Assembly (NCBI GenBank): GCA_964652895.1
Contig: CAZZCH010000006.1
Span: 1-63,172, forward strand
Direction: 5' to 3'
From: an uncultured Eubacteriales bacterium
GTDB taxonomy: Bacteria > Acidobacteriota > Aminicenantia > Aminicenantales > Saccharicenantaceae
DNA length: 63,172 nucleotides
Part shown: positions 31 to 23,707 of the stretch, piece after piece
How the letters are laid out: the number at the start of each line of letters is the position of its first letter
How positions within the stretch are numbered: position 1 is the stretch's first letter
Notes under the pieces: model-generated
Seen by the model: the letters and a program-made list of their open reading frames with translations, nothing else
The model's database searches: none
What the model was told of the DNA's origin: nothing
Position numbers and translations under genes: made by a program

Positions 31-55
31 ATGCCACAACTTATTGAGTAATTAC
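31..55. repeat. Left copy of 25-bp perfect inverted repeat ATGCCACAACTTATTGAGTAATTAC (partner 63121-63145)
   Basis: The reverse complement of 31-55 is identical to 63121-63145. The match stops abruptly on both sides. Only 8/25 positions are G+C in a GC-rich window. The repeat supplies the TAA stop of the truncated CDS 52-1341. Confidence 0.9.
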
Positions 56-1341
56 ACAGGGACTGTGTAAACGTAGTTATGATAGGGAGTTCGGATAAGG
101 AGCCCGATCTTGTTGTCGGGCGTCCATCCGGTCAGGATCCCGCCTTCTGGAAGCTCGATCTGAACGGGAGAGGCAAGGGGCCTGCCTTTTTCCGACACGG
201 GGACGATGCAGACCTCTGACCGCCGGTTGGGCGTCCTGACACTCTGGCTGAATGCGATCATCCTGCCATCGGGAGACCAGGTGGGACCCGTCGGGCTCAG
301 GTTCTCGCGCAGATCGCCGCTGACTTTGACGGGATCTTCGCCTTCGGTGGAAATCACCCATACTTCGCTCAGGCGGCCGGGAGGGTTATCTTGCCAGATT
401 GGAGGTGTTAAATAGGCGATCTTTGTCCCGTCCGGAGAAAAACATGGAGATATCCCGCCGTCTTTTGTAATCTGCTTGATATCGCCGGCAGCGACGGAGG
501 CAACATAGATTTGCCCGCCCGAATCAAACGTGACGGTTTTTCCGTCGGGAGACAAGCTCAGCCGGCGGGATGTGTCGCCTTTCGTTGCCATCCACTGAGG
601 GACAAGTATTCTTATGGGCTCTCCTCCGGCTGAAGGGATGACATCAATATGCGCCCCCTCAGGCCTGAAATTGATACGCGTTCCTCCGCCGCGCAAATCA
701 CGCGAATAGGCCCGGCTGAACGCGATCCAACGGCCGTTTCCGGACCACGACAGGCCGTCGCCGAGAACGTCAGTCGCTCCCCGCAATTCCTTCGGCTCAC
801 CGGCCAGGTCGGGATCGACCCTGCCCGATATCGGGACGGTCCAGATGGCGTTTCCCGAACCGAAGGCCAGTGTTTTCCCGTCTGGAGAAAGACGGCTTCC
901 GCTCCATTCGGGGATATTGAATGGCGTCCGAATTTTTCGAAAATTGGGTTTCCGGAGGGCCGTCTCGGTGATTTTTACGAGCCCGGCCAGTCTTTCCTTA
1001 GCTAGGGCCACCTCTTCTTTTTGCCCGGGATAGTCGGTAATAAGCCGCTGGTAGGCCTTCAGCGCTTCTTGGCTGCCCAGCTTTTCGTGGCACATGCCAA
1101 TTTGAAGCAGCGCCTTGGCGGCGACGTCCTTCTTGTCGGGGAACTTCACGATGATGCTCTGAAAGAGCTTGATGGCTCCGCCGAGGTCTCCTTCCGCCTC
1201 CTTCTTCAATAGGGCGGCTTGATAGAGCTCTTCGGCCGATTGCTGGGACGGATCGGAATGGACGAAGGCCCCAGCAAAGGCGCTGGCCATGAAAGCCGCC
1301 AAAAGGACGGCCATCCAACCGATCGTTTTTCTTTGAGACAT
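52..1341 (-). CDS. TPR + PD40/TolB-like beta-propeller secreted protein, paralog A, 3'-truncated
   Basis: ORF-track protein trimmed to the ATG at 1339-1341 (MSQRKTIGWMAVLLAAF...), with GGAGG 7 nt upstream. It has a signal peptide, a CpoB/YbgF-like TPR block (AIKLFQSIIVKFPDKK...CHEKLG...YQRLITDYPG) and repeated SPDG/WSPDG PD40 motifs. It is 429 aa versus 710-746 aa in the paralogs, and the frame runs into the 25-bp repeat and stops there. Confidence 0.8.
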   Translation of the reverse strand: MSQRKTIGWMAVLLAAFMASAFAGAFVHSDPSQQSAEELYQAALLKKEAEGDLGGAIKLFQSIIVKFPDKKDVAAKALLQIGMCHEKLGSQEALKAYQRLITDYPGQKEEVALAKERLAGLVKITETALRKPNFRKIRTPFNIPEWSGSRLSPDGKTLAFGSGNAIWTVPISGRVDPDLAGEPKELRGATDVLGDGLSWSGNGRWIAFSRAYSRDLRGGGTRINFRPEGAHIDVIPSAGGEPIRILVPQWMATKGDTSRRLSLSPDGKTVTFDSGGQIYVASVAAGDIKQITKDGGISPCFSPDGTKIAYLTPPIWQDNPPGRLSEVWVISTEGEDPVKVSGDLRENLSPTGPTWSPDGRMIAFSQSVRTPNRRSEVCIVPVSEKGRPLASPVQIELPEGGILTGWTPDNKIGLLIRTPYHNYVYTVPV

Positions 1342-1351
1342 TTTTAAACCT

Positions 1352-1372
1352 CCCTGTGAAGATCGCACAGGG
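1352..1372 (-). promoter_or_regulatory. Hairpin (7-bp stem, 7-nt loop) whose 3' arm overlaps the Shine-Dalgarno of paralog A
   Basis: The gene-strand sequence is CCCTGTG-cgatctt-CACAGGGAGG-tttaaaa-ATG. The 3' arm shares AGGG with the SD. Confidence 0.35.
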
Positions 1373-1446
1373 ATAATATAAGCCATGCCCTGGGCTGGCG
1401 GGTTGAGTCCGCGTTGCGATACCGATGAGCATTCATGGCCGTCCGT

Positions 1447-2127
1447 TCAGGCTACGAATCGGTAGCCGACGCCCCTGACGCTGAGGATGTGAACGGGACG
1501 GGCCGGGTCGTCCTCGATCTTCTTCCTCAAGTGGGAGATGTGCGGGTCGATGGTCCGGTAGGCCACGACGGCCTTCCCCCAGGCCTCGTCGAGGATCTCG
1601 TCCCTCGTCACGACCTGGCCCCGACGGGCGATGAGGAATCGGAGCAGGCCGAATTCCAGGGCGGTCAACGCCAGCTCCCGGCCTCGCTTGAAGATTTCAT
1701 GGCTCTTGAAGTCGACCGTCACCTCGCCGAATGTAAAGATATCACCCGGGTCGTCTTCCCTTCGCGCGCGCCTCAGGATCGCCTTCACGCGGGCGACGAG
1801 CTCCCGCGACCCGATGGGCTTGGTGACATAATCGTCGGCTCCGAGCTCCAAGCCGACCACTTTATCCATCTCTTCCGTTTTGGCCGCGGTCACCATGAGG
1901 ATGGGCGTTTTGACGCCGGCTTCCCTGAGCTTCTTGCAGACCTCGAATCCGTTGAGCCCCGGCAGAAGGATGTCCAGAATGATCAGCTGAAAACCCCCGC
2001 CCAGGGCCTGCTTCAGGCCATCTTTCCCGTCGGAAGCCGTCGCGACTTCAAAGCCGTCGAATTGGAGGTCGTCCTGAAGGCCCATGAGGATGGCCTTGTC
2101 GTCCTCGACGACGAGGATTTTATCCAT
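1447..2127 (-). CDS. OmpR/PhoB-family response regulator (module A)
   Basis: 226 aa. REC domain (ILVVEDD...LIILDILLPGLNG...GADDYVTKP) plus a winged-helix output domain ending VRGVGYRFVA. Overlaps the upstream kinase gene by 8 nt. Confidence 0.95.
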   Translation of the reverse strand: MDKILVVEDDKAILMGLQDDLQFDGFEVATASDGKDGLKQALGGGFQLIILDILLPGLNGFEVCKKLREAGVKTPILMVTAAKTEEMDKVVGLELGADDYVTKPIGSRELVARVKAILRRARREDDPGDIFTFGEVTVDFKSHEIFKRGRELALTALEFGLLRFLIARRGQVVTRDEILDEAWGKAVVAYRTIDPHISHLRKKIEDDPARPVHILSVRGVGYRFVA

Positions 2128-4240
2128 GTTCGTCCCCTTTCCTGAGTTCCGCCGGCCCGGACGGGAGCCTGATCGTCACTCGCGTCCCTTTCCCCGGTTC
2201 GCTCTCGAGAAGCACCGTTCCTCCATGCGCTCGGACGACGTGCTCGACCAGGGGGAGTCCGATTCCGCTTCCCTTGACGCTGCTTTGCAGGGCGCTCGCG
2301 GACCGGTAGAATTTTTCGAAGATCTTCTTCTGCTCGACCTTGGCGATACCGATCCCGTGATCTTCGACCTGGAAATTGACGGCGTCCTCCGCGGACCAGA
2401 CCCGCAGGGTGACGCGAGGAATTCCGCCCGAATACTTCACGGCGTTGTCGAGGAGGTTGAGCACCGCCCGGCCGAGAGCGTCCTTGTCCGCGCGGATGAG
2501 CGGCAGGTCGTCCGCGATCTCCGTCTCCAGAGTGAAATCCTTGAAGGCCGCCTGCTGACGGAACCGGCCGGCCACGTCGGCCGCCAGGGCCGCGATGTCC
2601 GTCTCCTCCATCCGGTATTCCTTGACACCCGCTTCGATCTTGGAGAAATCGAGGAGGTTCTCGACGAGCCGGCTCAGCCTCTCGCTTTCCCCCGTGATCG
2701 TTTCATAATACTGCTGCTTCCTCGCATCGTCGCGGACCCGGCCTCTCTGAAGAAGTTCGGCCATGTAGCGGATGGACATCAGCGGCGTCCGGAATTCGTG
2801 GGAAACGGTCGCCGTGAAATCCGATTTCAGCTTGGCCAGCCTGAGCTCCTTGGCCGTGCTTCGGATAGCCAAAAAGCCGCCGAAGAAGAGGGCCGCGATG
2901 ACGGCCGCGAGAGATAGGACGTAGATGGTTCTTCGCAACCGGAACTGTCTCTCCGCGGCGCCGGCACCGCTCCGGTGGACTTCGATCGTCCACGGCGGGA
3001 AGGAATCGGTGAATGCGCCCGTGAAGACGCGCTGGGAATCCCCGTTTTTTGCCGCCGCCTCCGGGGAGACAAGTCCTTGGCCGACGACGACTTTCCCGGA
3101 TTCATCGACGATCACGACCGACCAGCCTTCCTCGAGCTCAGATTTGCCGGAGCTCGGCGGGAAAAGCCCGCCGGCCAGAGCCTGGGGACTGAGGAGCAGG
3201 CCGAGCGTGGTCTTTGTGTCCAGGGGGAAAAAGGAGGCCAAAAGAAGGCCTGAGTCGGTCGACTCGGCGATGCGAAGGAATTTTCCGGAGTCCGCATCCA
3301 TCGCGCGGGCTTCGAGCCGCATGCGTGGGATGAGACGTCCACTGACCTTCTCCAGGATCCCTGTCTTCGCCAGCCGTTCTCCCTCGATCTTTTTCAGGTC
3401 TCGAAGCCGGCCGTCCCAACCCGCCCGGAGAGAGGCATCCAGCTCTCCCACGGTCGTCCGGAATAGATCCTCCGCCAATCTCCTGAAAGATTCAAATTGG
3501 CCCCTGCTCAGAGGCCACCTCGCATCGAGGAGGCCCTGATAGAGCTCGAGATAGGCCCCGGCCGCTTCCGCTCTCTGACCTCTTTGAAGATGGATATTCC
3601 CGATCTGGTAGAGTGCGTTGATCTCGAGCGGGATCCCTTCGGAAGCGATGTCGGGAAGGCCGATCTTGAGCTGCCGCCTGTATGCGGCGATGGCTTTTTC
3701 GGGCTGCCCCGATTTCAAATAGCAGCGGGCCAGCCGGTTCAGGGAAAGTGCAGCCAAGGCCGGGTCGGCGGTCTTGGCCGCCAACTCTCGATAAAGAGTG
3801 GCTGCCTGGGAATAATCGCTCAGACGGAACTCCGTCGCCTCCGCCCATTTCCAGCGTTCATCGTTTTCCAAGGAGCGGGCGATTTCCCTGGATCGCGCCT
3901 TTTCTTCCGGGAGGAGAAAGAGCGGCTTGGCGCCGAGAAAAGCGATTTGGCCTTCGTCATCGACGAAAAAGACCTCGGAGACGAGGGGAATATCGGACAG
4001 GGGTTCTTTCAAGCCCTTTTTTGCGGCTTCGAGAACGCGATTCTCGGCTTCGCTGACGAGCGATCGGGCCCGGCCGTCGATCGTCTCGACGAGCCGTCGC
4101 CGCGCGCCCTCGATCTCCCTCTCTTTGAGCAACTTCTCCCGTTCGGCCTCCCGGACGGCGAAAAAAACAAGGACGACGCTCAAGATCAGGAGCGATATGG
4201 CGAAGAAGATGACCGCCCGTCTTTGCCAATCCAGTTTCAT
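2120..4240 (-). CDS. Sensor histidine kinase with a large TPR-like extracytoplasmic domain (module A)
   Basis: 706 aa. It has an N-terminal TM (AVIFFAISLLILSVVLVFFAV) and roughly 400 aa with TPR-like repeats (YSQAATLYRELA..., KAIAAYRRQL...). A second TM is followed directly by the H-box (FTATVSHEFRTPL) and HATPase_c (GSGIGLPLVEHVVRAHGG). No HAMP or PAS is recognisable. Confidence 0.95.
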   Translation of the reverse strand: MKLDWQRRAVIFFAISLLILSVVLVFFAVREAEREKLLKEREIEGARRRLVETIDGRARSLVSEAENRVLEAAKKGLKEPLSDIPLVSEVFFVDDEGQIAFLGAKPLFLLPEEKARSREIARSLENDERWKWAEATEFRLSDYSQAATLYRELAAKTADPALAALSLNRLARCYLKSGQPEKAIAAYRRQLKIGLPDIASEGIPLEINALYQIGNIHLQRGQRAEAAGAYLELYQGLLDARWPLSRGQFESFRRLAEDLFRTTVGELDASLRAGWDGRLRDLKKIEGERLAKTGILEKVSGRLIPRMRLEARAMDADSGKFLRIAESTDSGLLLASFFPLDTKTTLGLLLSPQALAGGLFPPSSGKSELEEGWSVVIVDESGKVVVGQGLVSPEAAAKNGDSQRVFTGAFTDSFPPWTIEVHRSGAGAAERQFRLRRTIYVLSLAAVIAALFFGGFLAIRSTAKELRLAKLKSDFTATVSHEFRTPLMSIRYMAELLQRGRVRDDARKQQYYETITGESERLSRLVENLLDFSKIEAGVKEYRMEETDIAALAADVAGRFRQQAAFKDFTLETEIADDLPLIRADKDALGRAVLNLLDNAVKYSGGIPRVTLRVWSAEDAVNFQVEDHGIGIAKVEQKKIFEKFYRSASALQSSVKGSGIGLPLVEHVVRAHGGTVLLESEPGKGTRVTIRLPSGPAELRKGDEHG

Positions 4241-4390
4241 GACACTCGCCCCAGCCGGCTGATGGGGAGGTTATACCGGTCGACACCGTGAGTCAATAAA
4301 AAGACGTTGCGATTGTGTTGAGAATGGAAGGTCTTAATGGCGGCCCGATTGCTGACGGCCGGGGGAGGGAGGATCTGAAGGGCGCAAAGC

Positions 4391-4576
4391 TTAGTGGATC
4401 AGCCGCCAGACTTCCGACTTGCCCTGGCCGCGCCGCCATCTCTTGTATTCGAAAAAGCAGCAACAGCAGGTCGTGACGATCCCGACCAGCACGGCTCCCG
4501 CGGCGCCATAGGCCAGGATCTTGATGATAGCGTAGACAAAACCGGTCAACATATTGGCCGCTCCCACGAAATCCAT
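4391..4576 (-). CDS. Small hydrophobic protein with a CCCC motif (hypothetical)
   Basis: 61 aa (MDFVGAANMLTGFVYAIIKILAYGAAGAVLVGIVTTCCCCFFEYKRWRRGQ...). A strong SD is present (AAGGAGGGGGCGTC-ATG on the gene strand). It lies on the same strand and just upstream of kinase A. Confidence 0.5.
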   Translation of the reverse strand: MDFVGAANMLTGFVYAIIKILAYGAAGAVLVGIVTTCCCCFFEYKRWRRGQGKSEVWRLIH

Positions 4577-4975
4577 GACGCCCCCTCCTTCAGTGGTATT
4601 CCCGGGCCTATTCCTCCCTCTCGAAACGCAGCTCTCGGTGCGGAGAATGCGCGGTCCGCCTCCTATCCTCTCCTGTCCGGGCTCCCTCCTCTGTCCTCAA
4701 GCGCCCTTCGCAGACAACAGGATGTCTCCCCATGACGATCTCAATATAATCCGGCCGTGGCCGGGATGTGTCACGAAATTGTGATGATTTTGTAAAGATT
4801 TGATGAAAAGGCGAGAAAATTCACCCTATTTCTTCTCGACGGGCAGGAAAATGGTCAGAAGGGAGTGTGAAGATTCTGTCAAGAGATGGAACAGAGGGAC
4901 GGCCGGTGATAAGATAATTTCCAACCTTGCCCGGGCTCGTGCGTTTAAGTGAGTGAGGGCATAGGAAAGGCCCCG

Positions 4976-5566
4976 ATGACCATATGGCGGACGGACGAGG
5001 AACTCATGCTCAGGTACCGTGACGGAGACACGGCCGCTTTCGAAACGCTTTACCGGCGTTACGAGAGGCCCCTGTTCGACTTCATCTATCGCCTGGTCCC
5101 GGACTCTACCGACACCGAAAGCCTGTTCCAGGAGACATTTTTCCGGGTCGTGCGAGCGAAGAGAAAATATCGGGCGACGGCGCTGTTCAAAACATGGCTC
5201 TTTCAGATCGCCGTGAATCTCTGCCGGGACAGGACGAGGCGGATGAAGCACCGCTCTCATCTCTCCCTCAGTTCTCCTCTCGCTGCGCGGGGAGAATCTC
5301 GTGCCGAGCTTCAGGATTTCGTTCCCGATCCATCTCCGGCCGTCGACAAAGCCGCCGAGGCCGGCGAGCTCGAGACTGCCGTCAGAGGAGCCGTCGCGGC
5401 TCTTCCCGAAGACGAACATCTTGTCGTGGTCCTGAGAGAATACCAAGGGATGAATTACTCGGAAATCGCCGAGATCACGAACCGGCCGATCGGGACCCTG
5501 AAATCCATCAATCACCGGGCCCACGAGAGGCTCCGGAGCGCTCTCGCGCCTTATCTGGGAGAATAG
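4976..5566 (+). CDS. ECF-type RNA polymerase sigma factor (sigma-70 family, group 4)
   Basis: Region 2 (AFETLYRRYERPLFDFIYRLV...ESLFQETFFRV) and region 4 HTH (LREYQGMNYSEIAEITNRPIGTLKSINHRAHERLR). Start placed at ATG 4976 after GGAAAGG; the ORF track opens at GTG 4949. Confidence 0.9.
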   Translation: MTIWRTDEELMLRYRDGDTAAFETLYRRYERPLFDFIYRLVPDSTDTESLFQETFFRVVRAKRKYRATALFKTWLFQIAVNLCRDRTRRMKHRSHLSLSSPLAARGESRAELQDFVPDPSPAVDKAAEAGELETAVRGAVAALPEDEHLVVVLREYQGMNYSEIAEITNRPIGTLKSINHRAHERLRSALAPYLGE

Positions 5567-5569
5567 ACG

Positions 5570-6565
5570 ATGGAATGCGAAAACATCCGGAGGCGACTCA
5601 AAGCCTTCCTGGACGGCGAGCTCGAGGAGGCCGACAGGACAGCGATCCAGGACCATTTAGAGCATTGCCCGGGTTGCGCCGGAGTCGCCCGGCAGCTGAA
5701 ACAACTATCAGGCGTGCTCCAAACTTGGAAGGCCGAAGAACCCCCTGGGAATTTATACGAACGCCTGCAAGCGGGATTGGAATCCCGGGAATCGTGGTGG
5801 AAGAAGCTGTTGACGCCCGCGTTTGCCGGTAGAGCCGCCCTTCGGTTCGCCGAGGTCGCCGCGGTCGTCTTCATCACCCTCGCCGTCAGCCATTATTTCC
5901 AGAAGACCGCGCCGGTGCGTCCGGACGACGACCTCGCCACGATCAATTTCTACGTGACGGAACACCAGGAGGCCGTCCTGCAGGCCGCGTCTATGGAGTC
6001 CGCTGAGCGGCCGGCTGCCCGGGTGACCTTGAGCCGCGATGATATCATGTATTATGAATTCATCGACGATTATCGCCGGATATCACGCCCGGGAGTAATT
6101 TTGAGGGGATCTGCGTCCCTGCGGGACTCGGGGCAGGCCGCGCCGGGTTCTGGTCTTTCGAGTGCCAAAGCCCTCACGCTTCCTCAGGCCCGGAAGGAAG
6201 TGAGTTTCAACCCCGTGGCGCCCTCCCGGATCCATCCCGGTTATATCCTCGACACGATCACCAAGGTCGCCGGACGGGAGAGCCTTCATCTTCTCTACAC
6301 GAATGGGATCGAGAACTTCTCCGTATTCGAGCAGCCCCTCGACGGCGATCAGGGCCTTGCCGCAAAAGACTTCAGGGAATACGCCGTTTATAAAAGCTCC
6401 TCGCCGGCTGAAATTGCGGGGAATCAAGCGGGGACGACGATCCTAGCCTGGAAAAACACGTACGTCTCTTTTGTCTTGATAGGCCGGGCGGATATGTCCC
6501 GCTTGATGGAGATCGCCCAGGTTTTTACGGCCGCAAGTAAGAGCACAAATATAATCGGCGAGTGA
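5570..6565 (+). CDS. Anti-sigma factor (zf-HC2 N-terminus, one TM, extracytoplasmic RseB/DUF4367-like C-terminal domain)
   Basis: 331 aa. It starts 4 nt after the sigma gene. It carries an HLEHCPGC zinc-finger anti-sigma motif and a TM (AALRFAEVAAVVFITLAVSHYF). The family of the C-terminal domain is inferred only. Confidence 0.85.
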   Translation: MECENIRRRLKAFLDGELEEADRTAIQDHLEHCPGCAGVARQLKQLSGVLQTWKAEEPPGNLYERLQAGLESRESWWKKLLTPAFAGRAALRFAEVAAVVFITLAVSHYFQKTAPVRPDDDLATINFYVTEHQEAVLQAASMESAERPAARVTLSRDDIMYYEFIDDYRRISRPGVILRGSASLRDSGQAAPGSGLSSAKALTLPQARKEVSFNPVAPSRIHPGYILDTITKVAGRESLHLLYTNGIENFSVFEQPLDGDQGLAAKDFREYAVYKSSSPAEIAGNQAGTTILAWKNTYVSFVLIGRADMSRLMEIAQVFTAASKSTNIIGE

Positions 6566-6628
6566 CCCCGAAAAGAGGTCGCTCGCCGGGACTTTTTAAG
6601 AAACCCGACTTCGGGGGAGGAGAGAACT

Positions 6629-9160: not shown

Positions 9161-9215
9161 TTGACAGAGGGATCAAAATATGACTATAGTAAGACATAGT
9201 AAGACATAGTAAGAC
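9161..9215 (+). promoter_or_regulatory. Promoter (-35 TTGACA 9161-9166, -10 TATAGT 9185-9190) overlapped by 3 tandem copies of ATAGTAAGAC (9186-9215)
   Basis: Canonical hexamers with an 18-nt spacer in an AT-rich patch. Three exact 10-bp direct repeats lie between the -10 and the SD of the RHH antitoxin gene, making them a likely operator. Confidence 0.55.
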
Positions 9216-15603: not shown

Positions 15604-15667
15604 GATGCTACCTCCGTCGGGTGGATCTTTCGTTCATCCGGAATGTAGCTCTGTCCGCGTTCCCTGG

Positions 15668-15703
15668 TGTCAAATGAAAGTAAAAGAATGTCAAAGATTG
15701 TCA
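15668..15703 (-). promoter_or_regulatory. Three TGACA(A) direct repeats (spacing 10 and 21 nt) between the regulator B stop and the paralog B start
   Basis: The gene-strand sequence is TGACAatctTTGACAttcttttactttcatTTGACA. The helical-repeat spacing fits OmpR-type boxes and/or a -35 element. Confidence 0.3.
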
Positions 15704-16402
15704 TCAGTCCATGAACCGGTATCCTTCGCCGTAGATGGAGAAGATATGCCGAGGCCGGGAGGGATCCTCCTCGATCTTCTTTCTCAGTTTCAGGATGTGG
15801 TTATCGATCGTCCGGGTCGTAGGGAATTTTTCGTATCCCCAGATCTTGTCAAGAAGCGCCTCCCGGGAAACTACTTCGCCTTTGTGGGCGATGAGATATT
15901 TCAGGATATCGACTTCGAGAGACGTCAGGTCGGATTCCTTCCCGGCGTGCCTCACTTTGAAATGGACGAAATCGACCTCAACATCGCCGAACACACAGAT
16001 CTTGAGGATGCTCCGTGGTTCCCGCTTTTCGCGCCGCAAATGGGCCTTGATCCTGGCCAGGAGCTCCCGGACGCTGAACGGCTTGGTCATGTAGTCGTCG
16101 GCCCCGATCTCGAGCCCTACGACCTTGTCCACTTCTTCGCCCTTGGCCGTGAGCATGATGACGGGGACATTCGCTTTTTTCTGGCGGAGCTCCCGGCAGA
16201 CCTCCAGCCCGTTCATCCCGGGCAGCATGAGGTCGAGGATGACGATGTCGGGCGCCTCTTCCAGGGCCCGGCGCAGGCCTTCCCGCCCGTCGGCCGCCCA
16301 ATCCACCTCGTATCCCTCGTCGGCCAGGTTGAGCTTCAAGCCCTTGACCAGGTCGGCCTCGTCCTCGATGATCAATATTTTTTCTTTCGTTTTTTCGTTC
16401 AT
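15704..16402 (-). CDS. OmpR/PhoB-family response regulator (module B)
   Basis: 232 aa. REC (ILIIEDE...IVILDLMLPGMNG...GADDYMTKP) plus a winged helix (...IYGEGYRFMD). Overlaps kinase B by 4 nt. Confidence 0.95.
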   Translation of the reverse strand: MNEKTKEKILIIEDEADLVKGLKLNLADEGYEVDWAADGREGLRRALEEAPDIVILDLMLPGMNGLEVCRELRQKKANVPVIMLTAKGEEVDKVVGLEIGADDYMTKPFSVRELLARIKAHLRREKREPRSILKICVFGDVEVDFVHFKVRHAGKESDLTSLEVDILKYLIAHKGEVVSREALLDKIWGYEKFPTTRTIDNHILKLRKKIEEDPSRPRHIFSIYGEGYRFMD

Positions 16403-18552
16403 TTCAATTCGCCCGCTTCTGGACCTGAGATCGGCAAAATGACGGAGAAAACGCTGCCCTTTCCCGGTTCGCTCTCGACTTCGACCGTCCCACCGTGGGC
16501 CTCGGCGGTGTGTTTGACCAGGGTCAAGCCCAGGCCGCTCCCTGGCGTTTCGGAGACAACGCTGTTTTTCGCCCGGTAAAATCTCTTGAAGATCCCCGCG
16601 AGATCCTGGGGGGAGATACCGATCCCTTTATCCTCGACCTGAATGATGGCCAGGTCGTTCTTCCTGAACAGCCTCACGGTAACTTCTTTCCGATCGGGAG
16701 AAAACTTCATGGCATTGCTCAGGAGGTTGATGAGGGCGCTGGCCACGGCCTCGCCGTCGAAGTTCATCTCCGGCAGGTCCGGCGCAATGTCCTCGAGGAC
16801 TTGAAAGCCCTTTTTCTCGAGGTGATACCGGTAGGAATCGAGCGTTTCCTTGACGACCTGCGAAAGCGAGCCCTTGGTGAAGGTGAATTCCTTCCGCCCC
16901 ATGTCGATCCTGGAGAAATCGAGCACATTGTTGATGAGGTGCGAAAGGCGCTCGCTTTCCTTGGTGATGATCTCGTAGCTCTCGCGGCGCTCGTTCTCCG
17001 TGAGGTTCTCCTTACGCTGGAGGGTCTCCCCGTAGAGGCGGATGAGGGTCAGGGGTGTTTTCAGCTCGTGGGAGATGTTGTGGACGAATTCTGTCTTGAG
17101 GCGTGTCGTTTCCGCCTCGCGGGAGATGTCCCGGCCCAAGAGAAACGCTCCGAGCAGCATGAGGATGACGATGAACGCCAAGAGCGCCCCATAGAGGAAA
17201 TTCTCGCGGCGAGCCGTCCGCTCGAGCTCGTCGAGCGCGGGCTGGGTCACGAGGAGCTTCCAGGGAAGAGGAAATTGACGGTAAGAAAGGAGGAAGGAAT
17301 CCTTCGACCCCAGCTCTCCGGCGGCCGGCGACCCCGGGCGGTTCTCCTCGATGTTTTCGAGCTCAAGGCCGGTCTTTTTCGATATCTCCCCGAGGATTTC
17401 CGGAAGGAGTCCTTTTTTCAGGGACTCGAGGTCCCAGCAAAAGCCGCCGTAATACGTCCGGCCCTTGTCGAAATTCGGGAACGGAGAGTACGAGACGAGG
17501 CCGTAACCCTCGCTTCGATTTACCAGCAGGCGGTCGGGTTGAAGCTGAGGGCCGCCGCGGAACGATGAAACGCCCATTCTCTCCTTGATTTCCGGCACGA
17601 CGTCTTTGTTAAGGAATTCCGTGAATAGCAAAGCCTCGAGATAGGGAGAAGGGCGGTCCTTGATGGCTTGATAGGCCTTATCGATCTCGGTGACTCCGCC
17701 CGCTTGGAGACCGGTCTCGATCAGGGATTGGATTTCTGACGCGAAGAAATCATACTCGGGAAAGCTGACCGGCCAGTTCCCGTCTTTGAGGCCTTGATAG
17801 AGGTCGAGCAAGACCCGCAAGCCGGCTTCTACTTGTTGCCGGCGTTTTTCGATCTCATGGATTTGAAAGGCGGCCGTCAGGCCGAAAAAATGCCCCGCCC
17901 GGTCCTGGAGCCGGCCGTACTTATCGCCCAGTTCGCCGTAGACTTTAAAGGCCTCATTCAGGCTGCCGGCGGATATCAGGCAGCGACCCATCGCCTCCAG
18001 GGCCATCGCCTTCTCCCGGTCTAATGGAGCGTGGACGACTGATTCCCGATAGACCTGGGCGGCTCGGGCGAAGTCCTTCCGGGAAAACTCGTAGATTTCC
18101 CCCCTTCGGAAGGCCTTGGAAAATTCGCTTTCCGGGGCGATTTCCTCGCTGGATGAAATGGACGGCCTCTCGCTCCCTGTCCTGGGGAAGACGGTCTGAT
18201 ATTCACTGTCGAGTAGGAAAGGCGTGCCGGGTATATTCGCCGAGTAGCCCGCGCTGCCTTCATCCGGTTGGGTACCCGGGAGACCAGAGCTTTTCCGCCG
18301 GCTCAGACCGATAAAATTTTCGATCTGCAGCGCTTCCTTTTCACGCTCGATAAGCGCCGCCTCGACAGACCGCAGGGCGGATTCACCGGAGATCCAGAGG
18401 TTCGACTCGAGGATCCTTTTGACGGCTTCCCGCCGCTTGGCGAAGGCGCCGAGGCTCATGTACCCGACGACGAGCGCGGGAAGGAGGATGGCCAGGAAAA
18501 AAATGAGGACGATTTTCTTCCTGGCAAGTATCCCCTCGGCAAAAAGCTTCAT
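16399..18552 (-). CDS. Sensor histidine kinase with a large TPR-like extracytoplasmic domain (module B)
   Basis: 717 aa. Same architecture as kinase A: TM, about 400 aa periplasmic region (FARAAQVYRESV..., NEAFKVYGELGDKYG), TM, H-box FVHNISHELKTPL, G-box GSGLGLTLVKHTAEAHGG. Confidence 0.95.
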   Translation of the reverse strand: MKLFAEGILARKKIVLIFFLAILLPALVVGYMSLGAFAKRREAVKRILESNLWISGESALRSVEAALIEREKEALQIENFIGLSRRKSSGLPGTQPDEGSAGYSANIPGTPFLLDSEYQTVFPRTGSERPSISSSEEIAPESEFSKAFRRGEIYEFSRKDFARAAQVYRESVVHAPLDREKAMALEAMGRCLISAGSLNEAFKVYGELGDKYGRLQDRAGHFFGLTAAFQIHEIEKRRQQVEAGLRVLLDLYQGLKDGNWPVSFPEYDFFASEIQSLIETGLQAGGVTEIDKAYQAIKDRPSPYLEALLFTEFLNKDVVPEIKERMGVSSFRGGPQLQPDRLLVNRSEGYGLVSYSPFPNFDKGRTYYGGFCWDLESLKKGLLPEILGEISKKTGLELENIEENRPGSPAAGELGSKDSFLLSYRQFPLPWKLLVTQPALDELERTARRENFLYGALLAFIVILMLLGAFLLGRDISREAETTRLKTEFVHNISHELKTPLTLIRLYGETLQRKENLTENERRESYEIITKESERLSHLINNVLDFSRIDMGRKEFTFTKGSLSQVVKETLDSYRYHLEKKGFQVLEDIAPDLPEMNFDGEAVASALINLLSNAMKFSPDRKEVTVRLFRKNDLAIIQVEDKGIGISPQDLAGIFKRFYRAKNSVVSETPGSGLGLTLVKHTAEAHGGTVEVESEPGKGSVFSVILPISGPEAGELK

Positions 18553-18644
18553 TGCTGACCCCGCGATCGAGGCTCGATACGGGTGATTTCATTTTCATTG
18601 TAACAAATCGCTTTGTCGAATTGTCAAAGAATTGTAAAAATCGC

Positions 18645-20777
18645 CTATTTCTTAGTCTTATCCACGGGCAGGAAGTTCTCCATGACCCAGACTTGGGATT
18701 GTTCGGGATTCGCGCCCATGGATGAAAAGGCGAAATGCTGTCCGTCTGGATGGACGCTCATATAGCGGAATCGAGCCATCGACAGGTCGATCTTTTGGGC
18801 TTCTCCTCCGTCCGCGGAGAGACGATAGAGATCACACATATCTTCGGTGGATTTCTGCAGCTTGGAGAAATAGATAAAGCGTCCATCGGCGCTCCAGGTC
18901 GGCGTTATAACGGGACCGCCTTCTTGTTCGAAGCTGTATATTTCTCGAAGATCTCCGCCCGACGTCGGCATGATTCTTATCACGATTTTGTTTCCTCTGT
19001 TGGTGAGGGCCAGCCATTTCCCGTCCGGGGAGATATCGAAGAACTGCGCATCAGAAGGGGAACCGGAAATCCGCTCTTCCTGGCCGGATTCAAAAATATG
19101 GACGAAAATAGAGCCTGTTTTTCCGGCCCGATCGCCGGTCGAATAGAACATGACTTTCCCGTCCGTGGACCACAGGTGTGAGTATATCTCCGTTCCTTTA
19201 TCGATCAGCACGATCGGGGCAATGTCGCCTGTTTGGACATCGACCCTGTAGATACCCTTACGGCCATCCTTGCCGGTTCCTTCAACAGAAACGGCGCGGC
19301 CATCGGGCGCCCAGCGGGGATATCCAAACCCATCTAGATCAGGCTTTAACTCACGAACTCGGCCTGTTTCCAGAGATAGAATACGCAGGATCTGCTTAGG
19401 CTGAATTGCCGGGATGCTCGGAGTGTAGATATACACAAGGAACTTCCCGTCAGGAGAGTACTCAGGGAACGCGTTGTGCCCCTCATAAAGCAAAACTGCC
19501 TTTTTTGCGGGGCTAGAGATCTTTCCCGTACGGGGCTCTATTCCGACCTCGTACACATCAGTGCCGCCGCCTTGAAGCCCGTAAAATAATGCTCCCGTCG
19601 AGGTGATTCCCATCGGCCAGACAGAACCCACGGCGGACTTGACCAATTGGGGGCTTCCGAGAAGGTTGCCTTCGCTGATACGCATGAACCACACGTCCTG
19701 TGTCCCTGTCCGGTTGCTAAGGAACAGAAGGCCCTCGCCGCCCGGCGTCCAGTCGATGACCGTATCGACGGCGGGATGGTTGATCAAGGGAGTCTCTATT
19801 CTTCCATCGGCCGACAGCAAGAAAATATCCCGTTTATCATCCAGCCCGTCTCCCACCCAGGCGTCATAGGCGACATATCTTCCGTTCGGAGAGAACACGA
19901 ACCCCCAGGCTTTGCGGTTTATCGAATGTTGTCCTAAAAAGGTTTTCAGGACCTTTTCTGAACCATCGACAACGGATATCAAGCCTAGTTGGGTTATCTC
20001 TTCGACGGCCGAGTTCTCCACCCTAAAGAAACCTGCCAAAACGGATTTTCCGTCGGGAGACCAGTCAAACGGGTGGACATACTCCATTTTTTCGAGAGTT
20101 CGATAGAGGACACGCGGAGTCGCCTCTTTGATATCGATGATGCGCAACTCAAAGATCTCATCCTTGTTGTACCATTGATAGACGATCCGCCGGCTGTCGG
20201 GGGACCATTTCGAAAACAGGGCAAATTCCGGGGACTGCATCCATGAGCCCTTGTTCGTCAGACGGCGGTTTGTCCCTTCGGCGATGTCCCTGATCGCCAA
20301 GTCGCCCGTCTCCCAATCCACAAAAGAGAGATATCGGCCGTCCGGAGAGACGCTCCCCATGGTGTCCGTTCCGGGACCCGACCAAATCTGGCGGAGGCTG
20401 AATTCGGCGGTGCCCGTCTTCATGAGAGCGCGGGACTTAATGAGGAGGGAGAGTTTTGATTGGGCTTCCCTGACTGGCCCCGACTGCTCCGGGTAATTGT
20501 CGATTACTTGCTGAAAGGCCTTTTCCGCTTCTTTTGTGCCCAGTTTCTCGTAACAAAGTCCGATATGGAGCTGGGCCATTGCGGCGATTTGGCGGTTCTC
20601 CGGAAACCGCTTGACGAGGTCCTGGTAGATCCCTATGGCCTTCTGCAGGTCTCCGCCTACTTCTTCTTCATAAAGGCCGGACTTGTAGAGCTGTTGGGCG
20701 GTCTGTTGGCCGGCGCCCGAAAGGGCCAAGGCCAAGATCGCGGCCATTAGGGCAGACAAGATCAATTTTGGTTTCAT
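18645..20777 (-). CDS. TPR + PD40/TolB-like beta-propeller secreted protein (paralog C)
   Basis: Trimmed to ATG 20775-20777 (MKPKLILSALMAAILALALSG...), preceded by GAGGAGG. 710 aa. TPR (AIGIYQDLVKRFPENRQIAAMAQLHIGLCYEKLG...FQQVIDNYPEQ), PD40 motifs, C-terminus QVWVMENFLPVDKTKK*. Confidence 0.92.
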   Translation of the reverse strand: MKPKLILSALMAAILALALSGAGQQTAQQLYKSGLYEEEVGGDLQKAIGIYQDLVKRFPENRQIAAMAQLHIGLCYEKLGTKEAEKAFQQVIDNYPEQSGPVREAQSKLSLLIKSRALMKTGTAEFSLRQIWSGPGTDTMGSVSPDGRYLSFVDWETGDLAIRDIAEGTNRRLTNKGSWMQSPEFALFSKWSPDSRRIVYQWYNKDEIFELRIIDIKEATPRVLYRTLEKMEYVHPFDWSPDGKSVLAGFFRVENSAVEEITQLGLISVVDGSEKVLKTFLGQHSINRKAWGFVFSPNGRYVAYDAWVGDGLDDKRDIFLLSADGRIETPLINHPAVDTVIDWTPGGEGLLFLSNRTGTQDVWFMRISEGNLLGSPQLVKSAVGSVWPMGITSTGALFYGLQGGGTDVYEVGIEPRTGKISSPAKKAVLLYEGHNAFPEYSPDGKFLVYIYTPSIPAIQPKQILRILSLETGRVRELKPDLDGFGYPRWAPDGRAVSVEGTGKDGRKGIYRVDVQTGDIAPIVLIDKGTEIYSHLWSTDGKVMFYSTGDRAGKTGSIFVHIFESGQEERISGSPSDAQFFDISPDGKWLALTNRGNKIVIRIMPTSGGDLREIYSFEQEGGPVITPTWSADGRFIYFSKLQKSTEDMCDLYRLSADGGEAQKIDLSMARFRYMSVHPDGQHFAFSSMGANPEQSQVWVMENFLPVDKTKK

Positions 20778-20788
20778 GATTCGAGCCT

Positions 20789-20811
20789 CCTCATGGTTTA
20801 TCTCCATGAGG
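20789..20811 (-). promoter_or_regulatory. Hairpin (8-bp stem, 7-nt loop) whose 3' arm overlaps the Shine-Dalgarno of paralog C
   Basis: The gene-strand sequence is CCTCATGG-agataaa-CCATGAGGAGG-ctcgaatc-ATG. Confidence 0.35.
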
Positions 20812-20857
20812 AATGATAGGCCTGCGCCCAGTCGCGCGCTTGATGCTATCGCGACCC

Positions 20858-20877
20858 TTCCATGAAGATTCCATGAA
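20858..20877 (-). promoter_or_regulatory. Direct repeat TTCATGGAA-N2-TTCATGGAA (11-bp register): candidate OmpR-type regulator box upstream of paralog C
   Basis: Two exact 9-mers spaced 11 bp apart, 7 nt after the regulator C stop and about 80-100 nt upstream of the paralog C ATG. A weak -10 (TATCAT) with no -35 lies downstream. Confidence 0.35.
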
Positions 20878-20883: not shown

Positions 20884-21564
20884 TTACCCCGTGAACTTGT
20901 ATCCGACACCCCTCACGCCCAAGATGTATTTTGGGGCCTGCGGATCGTCCTCAAATTTTTTTCTTAGAAGCGAGATGTGCTTGTCGACGGTCCGGGCATC
21001 GACATAGACGTCCTTGCCCCAGACGCTGTCCAGGACTTCATTCCGATGGACCACGCGCCCCTTGTTTTGGACGAGGAAATGGAGCAGGCTGAACTCGAGA
21101 GCGGTCAGGGGGACCGGCCGGCCCTTTTTACGAGCCTCGTACTTTGAGAAATCGATCTCGATCGCGTCGAAGCGGTAAAAATCGATGCCCTGGTCATGCT
21201 CGCTCATCCTTCGGAGAATGGCCTTGATACGGGCCAGAAGCTCCCGGGAGCTGAACGGCTTGGTGACATAGTCGTCGGCCCCAAGCTCGAGGCCGAGGAC
21301 CTTGTCGACCTCCTGGCTCTTGGCGGTCAACATCAGGATCGGCGTCATCACCCGGTCCTGACGCAGCCGCTTGCAGACCTCGAAACCGTCCAACTTCGGC
21401 AGCATGATGTCGAGGACGATGAGGTCGAAGGGATGCTCAGCGGCCATGGACAGGCCTTCGAGGCCGTCTCTCGCGCACGAGACCTCGTACCCTTCGAGCC
21501 GGAGGTTATCCTCGAGCGGCATAAGGATGCTTTCTTCGTCTTCGACGATCAGGATCTTGGTCAT
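20884..21564 (-). CDS. OmpR/PhoB-family response regulator (module C)
   Basis: Trimmed to ATG 21562-21564 (MTKILIVEDEES...), 226 aa. REC plus winged helix (...VRGVGYKFTG). Starts 1 nt after the kinase C stop. Confidence 0.93.
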   Translation of the reverse strand: MTKILIVEDEESILMPLEDNLRLEGYEVSCARDGLEGLSMAAEHPFDLIVLDIMLPKLDGFEVCKRLRQDRVMTPILMLTAKSQEVDKVLGLELGADDYVTKPFSSRELLARIKAILRRMSEHDQGIDFYRFDAIEIDFSKYEARKKGRPVPLTALEFSLLHFLVQNKGRVVHRNEVLDSVWGKDVYVDARTVDKHISLLRKKFEDDPQAPKYILGVRGVGYKFTG

Positions 21565-21565
21565 C

Positions 21566-23707
21566 TCAGCCCCCTTTTCTTTGCGGAAGCGGCAGCCGGA
21601 TCGAGAATAGGCTGCCCTTCCCGGGTTCGCTTTCGACATGGACCTTACCCCGGTGGGCTGCGACGATTTCCTTGACCAGCGTCAGCCCCAGGCCGCTGCC
21701 TTTGACAGTCCGGGTCAATTCGTCGCCGCCGCGGTAAAAGCGCTCGAAGACCCTGTCGATGTCCTCTTTTATGATGCCGACGCCGAAGTCCCGTACGGCG
21801 ATGACGACGGCTTGTTCCTCAAGACGAGCGCTGACCGATATTTTTCGCGAATCCCCGGAATACTTGATGGCGTTGTCGACGAGGTTGGTCACAGCCTGCG
21901 ATAGGGCCGTCCGGTCCACCGCGAGAAGAGGAAGCGCTCCTTCGACGTCCAGGCCGATATCGAAGCCTTCGTGACGCACCCGTTCGCGAATGGATGTGAC
22001 GACCTCGGTCAAGAGGACGCTGATATCCGTCGTCTCGAACGCGAATTCCGCGCGGCCCGCCTCGATCTTGGCCAGGCTGAGGATGTTGTCCGTGAGCAGC
22101 GCCAGCCGCTCGCTCTGTTCGAGCAGGACATCGTAATATTTCTGCCGGCGCTCCTCGGAGGGCACCCGGCCCGATTGGAGCATCTCGGCCAGCTGCCGGA
22201 TCGAGGTCAGGGGGCTCTTGAACTCATGGGAGACCGTCGAGACGAAATCCGATTTCATCCGGGCCAGCTCCAGCTCGTGGGAGACGGAGCGGATGGTCAG
22301 GACCAGGCCGAAGATGAGGATGCCCGCGATGAGCAGAAACACAAAGAAATAGAGGCCCCGTCTCGACAGCAGAAACGTTTTGATTAGATGTGGAGGCGCC
22401 TGATGGAATTCAAGGGTCCAGTCCGGGAAATTCGAGGCGAAATTCGTCCGGATTGTCACAGGGCCCGTCGACGGATTCTCCGATGCCAATATAACCGAGC
22501 CGTCCCTTGCTTTGACGGCCCATGTCGTCTCTCCCGAAGGGAAATGATCGTGCAGGGCTGGCCGGAGGACATCCTCCTTGAGCCGATCGGCATCAATGAG
22601 TATCCCCCAAGCCGTATCCGAGGCGTTGCCCGCTCGCTCCGCTGACCTTTGTATCGAGACGAGATAGGGGAGATTGCCGATATCCAAAGCCAGCCTGGCG
22701 AAGGGAGGATTCGCCGCTTCCGTGCCGCCGGCGGTCTTCGCCTCCAGGACCGGGGCCGCGCCCTGCTCGAAGGCGATCATCCTCTCCGTTTCCTTTCTTT
22801 GTTCCGCCTCTTCCGCCCCGAGTGTCTGGAATTTCCCTCGCAATTTTGCGAGATCGAGGCCGGGCGGCGGATCTGAAAAGAATGCCTCGATATGGTTCTT
22901 AGCGCGGTTGACGAAAAATTCGAACTCGGCCCTCTCAAGGATCCATTCTCGCCGGAGAAGTGAACGATAGAGCCCTAAGGATGCCTGGAGGGATTTTGCG
23001 AAGTCTCCGAGCTCCCGGGATAATACGCAGATTTCCAGGCTGGCTGACGGCCCCAGCGGCATCCCTCCCGGAATGGCAACCCCGCCGTAGTCTCGAACGA
23101 TGTGTTCATAGGTCGAGACGGCTTCCTGGAGAAGTCCGGATTTCTTTTGGACTCTGGCTACAGCGTTGAGGATCATCCCTGCGAGGCGTGGATCGTTAGA
23201 GTGTCCCAAAACCTGCCTGTAGGCAGCCAGAGCCCTGGGATAGTCCTTCCCCTGGAACTCCAGCCGCTGGGCGGCTTGGAATTCCACGGAATCGCTTGGA
23301 TTGCCTGGAGGGGAGGGGACGGCTTCTCGATGGCCGTCCGGAATATACGACAACCTGGCGATGGGGAAATGGATATTTTTGAGATCCTGTAGATAAAAGA
23401 ACTGCTCGACAAGCGGGTTTGCAGCCGCCAGTTTTTTCAGGGCGGCCGCCGATTCCGGCGACGGCGTCCCGGAATGGCCCGCTACGATTTTCTCGAGAGC
23501 CGTTTCGACGGCCGTTATCTCGTCATCGACCGTGCCGATGACCTGATTGGCGGTCCGCCGAATATCCTCGAGCCGTTCCTTTTCGAGAAGTGCCCGGTCA
23601 TTTTGAATTCCGCGGAAGGCCAGATAGCCCAAGAGAAGGCTGGGCAGGACGATCCCGAGCCCGAAAAGCAGGACGATTCTCCGGCGTTGATGCATCGGGC
23701 CTTTCAC
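21566..23707 (-). CDS. Sensor histidine kinase with a large TPR-like extracytoplasmic domain (module C)
   Basis: 713 aa (GTG start at 23707; alternative ATG at 23695). TM, about 400 aa periplasmic region (YPRALAAYRQVLGHSNDPRLAG..., QEAVSTYEHIVRDYGG), TM, H-box FVSTVSHEFKSPL, G-box GSGLGLTLVKEIVAAHRG. Confidence 0.95.
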   Translation of the reverse strand: MKGPMHQRRRIVLLFGLGIVLPSLLLGYLAFRGIQNDRALLEKERLEDIRRTANQVIGTVDDEITAVETALEKIVAGHSGTPSPESAAALKKLAAANPLVEQFFYLQDLKNIHFPIARLSYIPDGHREAVPSPPGNPSDSVEFQAAQRLEFQGKDYPRALAAYRQVLGHSNDPRLAGMILNAVARVQKKSGLLQEAVSTYEHIVRDYGGVAIPGGMPLGPSASLEICVLSRELGDFAKSLQASLGLYRSLLRREWILERAEFEFFVNRAKNHIEAFFSDPPPGLDLAKLRGKFQTLGAEEAEQRKETERMIAFEQGAAPVLEAKTAGGTEAANPPFARLALDIGNLPYLVSIQRSAERAGNASDTAWGILIDADRLKEDVLRPALHDHFPSGETTWAVKARDGSVILASENPSTGPVTIRTNFASNFPDWTLEFHQAPPHLIKTFLLSRRGLYFFVFLLIAGILIFGLVLTIRSVSHELELARMKSDFVSTVSHEFKSPLTSIRQLAEMLQSGRVPSEERRQKYYDVLLEQSERLALLTDNILSLAKIEAGRAEFAFETTDISVLLTEVVTSIRERVRHEGFDIGLDVEGALPLLAVDRTALSQAVTNLVDNAIKYSGDSRKISVSARLEEQAVVIAVRDFGVGIIKEDIDRVFERFYRGGDELTRTVKGSGLGLTLVKEIVAAHRGKVHVESEPGKGSLFSIRLPLPQRKGG

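Follow-up and report, generated by a model that had tools for sequence, protein, structure and literature searches.

How does a bacterium come to carry, within a few adjoining operons, a family of related envelope proteins that sits next to three different kinds of signalling system? This question is raised by the first ~23.7 kb of contig CAZZCH010000006.1 from an uncultured sediment bacterium of Candidatus Aminicenantes, which was analyzed over a stretch of 63,172 nucleotides (nt) that we call the window. In this island, genes for proteins with an N-terminal head of tetratricopeptide repeats (TPR) and a body of PD40-type beta-propeller repeats accompany two-component systems, an extracytoplasmic function (ECF) sigma factor with its anti-sigma factor, and a BlaI repressor paired with a BlaR1-type protease. 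We find that the gene unit recurs in several phyla. The best-supported interpretation is that the unit carries out accessory-protein-assisted envelope signalling, a known kind of regulation that is built here from unrelated parts on three chassis.

A first-pass annotation, made from the sequence alone, had listed the genes of the island, and all of them are present in the open reading frame (ORF) calls and in Pfam (Table 1). As it proposed, three cassettes (A/RR1/HK1, B/RR2/HK2 and C/RR3/HK3) run from sensor kinase (HK) to response regulator (RR) and, after a spacer of 105, 100 and 106 nt, respectively, to a TPR-propeller paralog. The kinases carry HisKA and HATPase_c domains and the regulators a receiver and a winged-helix Trans_reg_C domain, as expected of OmpR/PhoB-class two-component systems. 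All three kinases are indeed paralogous, sharing one architecture and 31-37% identity, and the regulators are 50-58% identical (RR1 versus RR3, 58%; RR1 versus RR2, 50%). The ECF sigma/anti-sigma pair ahead of one copy and the BlaR1-type fusion adjoining BlaI are likewise in place. The sigma factor scores above the NCBIfam sigma70-ECF cut-off (43 bits), its neighbor is a zf-HC2 anti-sigma factor, and an ECF-like promoter motif lies upstream. All four stand-alone copies (A, S, B and C) combine Pfam TPR_6 with PD40, also as claimed. The total of seven copies has to be corrected to six (five genes and one relic), since tblastn with every protein detects no further copy in 63 kb.

The linkage of these genes to signalling genes is conserved. 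Paralog B has at least 1406 homologues. Scanning one genome per species yielded 80 loci, which were annotated by BLAST with the domains of the window, and a metagenome scan with paralog S as the query yielded a further 33; individual loci are cited below by L numbers. Sixty stand-alone TPR-propeller genes could be assessed; 36 of them lie directly behind a regulator gene and 20 behind an anti-sigma factor gene, so that the linkage predicted by the annotation holds for 56 of the 60 copies. Three of the four copies that follow neither are still within a cassette, which leaves L011 as the only real exception. The kinase-regulator-paralog order is present in every informative related contig. Locus L001, whose proteins are 83% identical, contains the same island, with two kinase cassettes, the BlaI/BlaR1 fusion and the sigma trio. 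Homologues with 40-56% identity occur in the same order, and tandem repetition of cassettes is common, with five successive cassettes in L004 and two each in L002 and L005. When the search starts instead from kinases that have an HK2-type sensor domain, it again leads to a regulator and then a paralog, and the trio of sigma factor, anti-sigma factor and S is kept in 20 of 20 assessable loci.

The unit is also found outside the source phylum. Kinase cassettes are present in Bacteroidota (L013, L033 and L040), and BlaI/M56-propeller pairs in Planctomycetota (L024, L026 and L031), with an orthologue of the window fusion in L001. Downstream of an ECF sigma gene, L036 and L039 encode a membrane protein with a C-terminal propeller, a putative anti-sigma protein. 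Propellers of more remote relationship occur in fusions with Ser/Thr kinases, with ToxR-like regulators and with true Tricorn-type proteases. The paralogs, which have orthologues in other phyla, represent ancient lineages and did not arise by recent local duplication.

How closely the copies are related depends on the pair. Paralogs B and C are 36% identical over 701 residues (E 3e-148), and the C terminus of the BlaR1 fusion is 35% identical to B (2e-108) and 33% identical to C (4e-111). These three sequences (for the fusion, its C-terminal 610 residues) thus make up a tight family, with 33-36% identity over 600-700 residues and the C-terminal motif WVMENFLP in common. A test set beforehand by the annotation, that the proteins should be closer to each other than to TolB, comes out in favor of a family, with E values of 1e-108 to 1e-148 compared with ~1e-8 for TolB. 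This close relationship extends to B, C and the fusion, whereas A and S are distant relatives that share the TPR head and have propellers only weakly similar to the others (22-27% identity). The relic between S and the BlaI gene also carries the WVMENFLP motif and is 32-40% identical to the last 62 residues of the fusion and of C; it is real, but by tblastn its homology stops at position 9069 and not at 9123 as annotated. In L090, L094 and L095 a full-length convergent paralog stands at this position, and the one in L089 is cut by the contig end.

Paralog A has a propeller of another subtype, 40% identical to proteins of 705-716 amino acids (aa) in L027 and L033. It had been described as truncated, and its second propeller is indeed missing; however, the window edge does not cut the gene, which ends in a stop codon of its own. 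A aligns to residues 1-425 of the longer homologues, its stop falls at the inter-propeller junction, and the 51 nt downstream contain no continuing reading frame and nothing homologous. We therefore regard A as a one-propeller form.

In an AlphaFold2 model of B (pLDDT 84.9), a disordered linker (residues 129-139) connects a helical TPR head to two propellers. The best Foldseek matches of this model are 2ymu, a double propeller, and the Tricorn protease 1k32 (E 1.7e-19), and the Pfam domains Tricorn_N and Tricorn_2nd are on record for homologues. According to the model, then, the body of these proteins is a Tricorn-like double propeller.

The kinases provide a second distinctive component. They are 706-717 residues long and have an extracytoplasmic domain of ~400 residues that belongs to no Pfam family; that of HK1 is large and contains TPR matches. 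HK2 consists of a first transmembrane segment, a small beta element, a TPR-like array (residues 143-332), an alpha/beta domain (340-436), a second transmembrane segment, HisKA and HATPase_c. In its AlphaFold2 model (pLDDT 80.8), the alpha/beta domain is membrane-proximal, and the second transmembrane segment runs straight into the HisKA helix with no HAMP domain between. A fold search for a known sensor fold in HK2 gave only weak, generic TPR matches (best E 5e-4), and the nearest structural matches of its TPR-like array, also weak, are peptide-binding TPR proteins. Among 1.84 billion representative proteins searched, relatives of the HK2 sensor form only 187 representative clusters, nearly all of the same length and architecture. 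The HK2-type sensor domain is thus a small, dedicated and rare family. A literature search, with subscription journals outside its coverage, found no paper on the cassette, on this sensor domain or on the BlaR1-propeller fusion.

The promoters link each paralog to its neighboring kinase. Every regulator-to-paralog spacer contains direct repeats with a 10-11 bp period and a sequence specific to its cassette, followed by a -10-like element, and the repeats of each spacer recur upstream of the cognate kinase gene. Tandem direct repeats of 10-11 bp are a classical signature of OmpR/PhoB-type operators. In the window, the type-1 pattern CTCANCNNNATCGCAACG occurs only at 1412-1429 and 4305-4322, where 0.01 chance matches are expected, and the type-3 pattern TTCAYNNAATCTTCAYNNAAG occurs only upstream of C and of HK3 and is matched in none of 100 shuffles (0.00 expected). 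Type 2 takes the form TGACAATCTT TGACATTCTTT TACTTTCATT TGACA, 20 nt and a -10-like TACATT upstream of B, and TTTTTACAATTCTTTGACA, 19 nt and TACAAT upstream of HK2. The type-2 repeats are invariant in eight orthologous cassettes (one from Bacteroidota), while the sequence between the repeats and the -10 element varies. The HK2-type promoter pattern is conserved upstream of eight orthologous kinases, and the type-3 motif is conserved in L001, L090 and L094. The TGACA-type repeat occurs 44 times in 1.47 Mb of related loci, and in 29 of these cases it precedes a kinase or paralog gene. No terminators were found in the regulator-to-paralog spacers.

Because each kinase promoter and its paralog promoter have cassette-specific repeats in common, we infer that the regulators bind these sites, that each system is autoregulated and that the paralog is its dedicated target. 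The suggestion in the first-pass annotation that the proteins are dedicated outputs gains support from this arrangement.

The inheritance of the protein parts points in a further direction. Distance matrices for 20 cassettes were compared by Mantel and partial Mantel correlations. The sensor domain and the catalytic domain of the kinase diverge in step with each other and with the regulator (r 0.92-0.94), and the TPR head follows the kinase and regulator matrices (r 0.72-0.73). The propeller does so far less (r 0.29-0.43), and its partial correlation with the regulator, controlling for the head, is 0.04. Its partial correlation with the sensor domain is positive (0.45), a value that we do not interpret because the distances are saturated. 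Exchange of the body can be seen directly in the L016 paralog, a chimera that shares 57-87% identity with the HK2-type head of L007 over residues 16-90 and, from about residue 105, 67-93% identity with the propeller of the L040 cassette, which has an unrelated kinase. The breakpoint coincides with the junction of TPR head and propeller. In L112-L117 (e.g. L115:5220-7355), an anti-sigma homologue is followed by a protein in which an S-type signal peptide and TPR head are joined to long ankyrin-repeat arrays. Conversely, the propeller fusions to M56/BlaR1 (the window, L001, L024, L026 and L031) and the putative anti-sigma-propeller proteins of L036 and L039 have no TPR head. The retention of the head with the signalling genes, the exchange of the body and the headless fusions together point to a head that belongs with the signalling partner and a body that is an exchangeable binding module. 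These observations, along with the propeller in the sensor position of BlaR1, lend indirect support to the other role that had been proposed for the proteins, that of co-sensors.

The chimera also touches on gene transfer. L016:7962-10025, from an Aminicenantales metagenome-assembled genome (MAG), and L040:3700-5712, from a Chitinophagaceae MAG, encode propellers that are 75% identical, with head, kinase and regulator of other types. This suggests cross-phylum transfer and recombination at the domain junction, unless the contigs are mis-binned.

The same logic extends to two chassis that lack a histidine kinase. In the sigma unit, S follows the anti-sigma gene after a 63-nt spacer with no promoter motif within, and would be co-transcribed with it. 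At least 12 loci keep the ECF-type promoter motif ahead of the orthologous sigma gene; a search of the whole window for further sigma targets returned it once, at the sigma operon. The periplasmic domain of the anti-sigma factor (~220 aa) matches no family, and S has the most CpoB-like TPR head among the copies. Ahead of S, a hairpin at 6557-6587 (+) overlaps the stop codon of the anti-sigma gene; seven orthologous spacers contain it, with compensatory changes in 3 of 12 pairs, and it may tune the ratio of S to sigma and anti-sigma factors.

In the BlaR1 unit, an intact HELAH (HEXXH) motif and a transmembrane segment are followed by a B/C-type double propeller. As in the BlaR1/MecR1-BlaI/MecI systems, the M56 protease adjoins a BlaI-family repressor gene and the operon promoter carries a TACA/TGTA palindrome, which occurs once in the window, so that a search for further BlaI targets there found none. 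Unlike in those systems, the penicillin-binding sensor domain is replaced by the PD40 propellers. The fusion scores 115 bits against the NCBIfam blaR1_generic model (cut-off 400 bits), and the match stops at profile position 333 of 585. With its penicillin-binding domain replaced, the fusion is not expected to respond to a beta-lactam. Judged by their promoter motifs, both the BlaR1 and the sigma units look autoregulated. Three BlaI/M56-propeller pairs stand in tandem in a Phycisphaerales MAG (L031:1696-14919), which shows that BlaR1-type units tend to expand as well.

Taken together, the evidence agrees with the proposal that an expanded family of envelope proteins serves as outputs, co-sensors or both for three unrelated trans-envelope systems. 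The model that we consider best supported, at a probability somewhat above even, is a set of feedback-regulated modules with a TPR-docked propeller as accessory receptor. A sensor kinase with a large periplasmic domain would phosphorylate its OmpR/PhoB-type regulator, which would bind the cassette-specific repeats at its own kinase-regulator promoter and thereby autoregulate the system. The regulator would also drive the TPR-propeller gene directly downstream as its dedicated target. The exported protein would act as a periplasmic accessory receptor, its TPR head docking on the cognate sensor and its propellers binding a ligand, most likely a peptide or protein segment, and would close a feedback loop of the ExoR-ExoS or CpxP-CpxA type. 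The ECF sigma/anti-sigma pair and its partner S would follow the same scheme. In the BlaR1/BlaI version, the propeller would be the extracytoplasmic sensor of the M56 protease itself, and its direct fusion would make a TPR head unnecessary. The computation itself establishes the conserved gene units, the operator-like repeats in common, the modular inheritance and the fold; the sign of the regulation, the docking of the head on the sensor and the ligand of the paralog are inferred.

Several points weigh against this model. For the proposed contact between TPR head and sensor, the partial Mantel correlation of the head with the kinase sensor domain, controlling for the regulator, is an unconvincing 0.16. 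Thus co-inheritance of head and kinase is established, and specific co-evolution in the periplasm is not. Moreover, the head is encoded by the 5′ end of its gene, beside the regulator gene, and physical linkage could explain its retention. The repeats overlap -35/-33-like sequences, and promoter architecture rather than regulator binding could be part of what they reflect. The site pairs that served to derive the operator patterns are also those that the patterns recover; independent support for the patterns comes from the orthologues. Family members in L019, L035 and L047 occur alone, with neither TPR heads nor signalling neighbors, and the isolated copy in L011 has a TPR head. Finally, taxon labels of MAGs may be unreliable.

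The main rival holds that the TPR-propeller proteins are effectors only, namely periplasmic binding, scavenging or chaperone-like proteins that are induced by the signalling system and send no signal back. We judge this fairly unlikely. It would account for the presence of a separate promoter with cognate operator-like repeats at each paralog, where no other target is visible nearby, for the lack of a specific head-sensor signal in the partial correlation, and for the family members that occur without signalling genes. It does not lead one to expect fusion of an effector as the input domain of a signalling protease, and yet the same propeller stands in the sensor position of BlaR1 and of the putative anti-sigma proteins, without a head. 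Nor does it fit a head that stays with the signalling genes while the body is swapped, even for ankyrin repeats. If the proteins are plain regulated effectors after all, the finding shrinks to a conserved operon of unknown function.

A second alternative, which we find quite improbable, views the proteins as constitutive co-sensors like LuxP-LuxQ or TorT-TorS and the shared repeats as duplicated promoter sequence rather than operators. The fusions and the modular inheritance fit a co-sensor, and the repeats do include -35/-33-like TTGACA and TTTG elements. However, three unrelated repeat types are each found at exactly two cognate promoters, types 1 and 3 are unlike promoter hexamers, and the 10-11 bp periodicity, with up to four units upstream of the promoter core, is usual for OmpR/PhoB sites.

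The names used by the first-pass annotation, CpoB-TPR and TolB-propeller, invite the reading that these are extra TolB- or CpoB-like Tol-Pal components under stress control. The best named sequence matches are indeed TolB and YbgF/CpoB models, and the sequence matches in the PDB are to TolB. Despite this domain-level resemblance, orthology fails for both names: the five copies score 44-136 bits against a curated TolB cut-off of 343 bits (TIGR02800) and 26-57 bits against a YbgF cut-off of 90 bits (TIGR02795). The best PDB match has an E value of ~1e-8 and covers one propeller only, as does TolB in the Foldseek search with B. Pfam detects no TolB N-terminal domain, and the model has a TPR head and two propellers instead of one. 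CpoB/YbgF measures ~260 aa, begins with a coiled coil and has its TPR domain at the C terminus, whereas the TPR is N-terminal here and precedes ~570 residues of propeller. No tolQRA or pal genes were present among the larger window ORFs scanned, as the annotation had stated, or in the gene tables read of related loci. Both names thus denote repeat types and imply no orthology, and a role in Tol-Pal is very improbable. Finally, although PD40 and TPR proteins are abundant in these phyla, chance adjacency of generic PD40 proteins to signalling genes is ruled out for practical purposes by the neighborhood survey, given linkage on many contigs in at least two phyla with gene order and spacer motifs conserved.

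The feedback model with a docked accessory receptor can be carried one step further. The proteins could be plug-in co-receptors in which the TPR head is a docking adaptor specific for one sensor, be it a kinase of the new sensor-domain family or the periplasmic domain of an anti-sigma factor, and the exchangeable body (propeller subtypes or ankyrin repeats) confers ligand specificity, with the three chassis re-targeted by module swap. We put this forward tentatively, as a possibility on the doubtful side. If true, the fusions to BlaR1 and anti-sigma proteins would be the covalent end-point of the same design, and the whole would represent a general, unrecognized route of envelope-sensing diversification in Acidobacteriota/Aminicenantes, Bacteroidota and Planctomycetota.

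Accessory proteins of this kind are known from other bacteria. ExoR is a periplasmic protein that binds ExoS and is controlled by proteolysis, its gene is under ExoS-ChvI feedback, and the CpxP-CpxA pair is analogous (PMC10659215). In such systems, accessory protein, kinase and cognate regulator form a feedback loop (PMC10659215, PMC4550343). Like ExoR-ExoS-ChvI of Rhizobiales and CpxP-CpxA-CpxR of Enterobacteria, the cassettes pair a sensor kinase with a secreted accessory protein, which in ExoR has helical (Sel1/TPR-like) repeats and here has a TPR head, and place its gene under the cognate regulator, to judge here from the cognate repeats at the promoter. Unlike ExoR and CpxP, the paralogs are of unrelated sequence, carry a 570-residue double propeller and belong to a fixed three-gene unit directly downstream of the regulator. 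The kinase sensor is of a different family with TPR-like repeats, and kinase binding by the paralog is proposed here by analogy.

Other parallels concern the remaining chassis and the propeller. RseA is an ECF anti-sigma factor with an extracytoplasmic partner, RseB. The sigma unit resembles RseB-RseA and PbpP-RsiP in grouping the gene for a secreted third protein with those for a sigma factor and its membrane anti-sigma factor, but its third protein, with TPR head and propeller or ankyrin repeats, is unrelated to RseB or to penicillin-binding proteins. PbpP is described as a separate sensor protein required for sigma-P activation (PMC8092216). TolB and CpoB/YbgF share with the family PD40 and TPR_6-type repeats and a periplasmic location, and differ from it in that TPR and two propellers are here joined in one polypeptide without tol-pal context. 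Tricorn protease has the same kind of double propeller (Pfam Tricorn_N/Tricorn_2nd; Foldseek 1k32), but the resemblance is confined to the propeller part. The catalytic C1, PDZ and S41 domains are absent, and no protease activity is therefore expected of the paralogs; true Tricorn-type proteins with catalytic domains are found only as distant matches, e.g. in L043. Propellers also serve as extracytoplasmic input domains of membrane signalling proteins in Pkinase-PD40 receptor kinases and ToxR-like Trans_reg_C-PD40 one-component regulators (L041, L072 and L084) and in PknD (PMC1847690). Those are covalent fusions to other output domains with distant propellers (E ~1e-15), in contrast to the non-covalent unit with a TPR head described here.

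If the feedback model is right, these loci define a widespread, uncharacterized three-gene signalling unit as well as a new kinase sensor-domain family. The phyla concerned dominate sediments and soils, and their signal transduction has hardly been studied. The unit would be a rare case of one extracytoplasmic module combined with two-component, ECF sigma and BlaR1-type pathways, useful in studies of the evolution of sensory specificity and in the design of synthetic sensors. The model predicts regulator-specific operators, a docking head and an exchangeable ligand-binding body, and the presence of the cassette in the cultured Draconibacterium aestuarii Z1-6 (L033) makes experiments possible.

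Table 1. Genes, promoters and operator-like elements of the island, in window coordinates.
Feature	Position	Strand	Description
Paralog A	52-1341	-	429 aa; signal peptide, TPR head, single propeller; Pfam TPR_6 + PD40
A promoter region	1371-1429	-	type-1 box CTCATCGGTATCGCAACG (1412-1429); -10-like TTATATTAT (1371-1383)
RR1	1447-2127	-	OmpR/PhoB-type response regulator; Response_reg + Trans_reg_C
HK1	2120-4240	-	sensor kinase; HisKA, HATPase_c, TPR matches at residues 138-234; no HAMP
Type-1 box upstream of HK1	4305-4322	-	CTCAACACAATCGCAACG
ECF-type promoter of sigma operon	4921-4945	+	CCAACC-N11-CGTGCGTT
ECF sigma factor	4949-5566	+	NCBIfam sigma70-ECF 94 bits; Sigma70_r2 + r4 on record for L001 orthologue
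Membrane anti-sigma factor	5570-6565	+	zf-HC2 (E 2e-10), one transmembrane segment
Paralog S	6629-8869	+	signal peptide, TPR head, double propeller of divergent subtype
B/C-type C-terminal relic	8896-9069	-	ORF 8896-9027; ends ...ENFLPADKAKK
blaI promoter	10021-10063	+	TTGACA-17-TATATT, then BlaI/MecI-type palindrome CTACAGATGTAG (10052-10063)
BlaI-type repressor	10079-10459	+	Penicillinase_R, E 1.4e-32
M56-propeller (BlaR1) fusion	10456-13419	+	987 residues; Peptidase_M56 E 5.6e-42 + PD40
Paralog B	13456-15603	-	signal peptide, TPR head, disordered linker, two beta-propellers (AlphaFold2 model)
B promoter	15640-15703	-	four direct repeats TGACA/TTACT, 10-11 bp period (15668-15703); -10-like element (15640-15649)
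RR2	15704-16402	-	OmpR/PhoB-type response regulator; Pfam domains on record for orthologue
HK2	16399-18552	-	sensor kinase; HisKA + HATPase_c; AlphaFold2 model
HK2-RR2 promoter	18596-18640	-	TTTTTACAATTCTTTGACAATTC, 19 nt, TACAAT
Paralog C	18645-20777	-	signal peptide, TPR head, double propeller
C promoter	20810-20877	-	type-3 tandem repeat TTCATGGAATCTTCATGGAAG (20857-20877); -10-like TATCATT (element at 20810-20820)
RR3	20884-21564	-	OmpR/PhoB-type response regulator
HK3	21566-23707	-	sensor kinase, architecture as HK1/HK2
HK3-RR3 promoter	23827-23881	-	type-3 repeat TTCACATAATCTTCACCAAAG (23861-23881); -10-like CATAAT

The sigma factor gene probably starts at an ATG ~27 nt downstream of the annotated position 4949. 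Between this gene and HK1, a 61-residue membrane ORF with a CCCC motif (4391-4576, -) is preceded by three TNACA repeats with an 11-bp period (TTTACAAAATCATCACAATTTCGTGACA) and a -10-like GATTATATTG (4742-4798, -); it may be a further regulator target or belong to the HK1 operon as its leader. An (A)AATCACC element lies just upstream of the ribosome-binding site in both the B and the HK2 leader (~15610-15625 and ~18575-18590, -) and is also present in orthologous spacers. Outside the island, a one-mismatch type-2-like repeat CGACATTTTTTTGAC lies at 43877-43891 (+), between an RND efflux operon and secA, and in L002:13077-18417 an orphan regulator (best match RR1) precedes a MacAB-type efflux operon. 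Such regulons might thus include efflux genes, or these placements could be due to chance. At 52639-54999 (-), a penicillin-amidase gene is broken into two neighboring ORFs ~10 nt apart, which match profile positions 1-139 and 168-606; a frameshift, a nonsense mutation or an error of assembly may be the cause.

Toxin-antitoxin genes occur within the island and at its edge. An RHH antitoxin and PIN toxin pair (9232-9902, +) is preceded by a direct repeat AGTAAGACATAGTAAGACATAGTAA at 9188-9212, and a PemK/MazF toxin gene (23920-24294, -) is found at the island edge. The RHH/PIN pair and the paralog relic are both absent from the syntenic contig L001, and the cassettes of L004, L005, L007 and L122 are also bordered by toxin-antitoxin genes. 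A defence-island reading was considered on account of these neighbors and set aside, as PADLOC gave no match save a generic ATPase-domain match of the kinase. In L122, a kinase-regulator-paralog cassette is flanked on either side by a copy of one uncharacterized gene pair (85/113 aa and 193 aa; 5066-5908 and 11121-12047). The remaining window encodes SecA and ordinary transport and metabolic functions, and its G+C content is 60-66%, compared with 53-59% in the island (window positions 1-23700).

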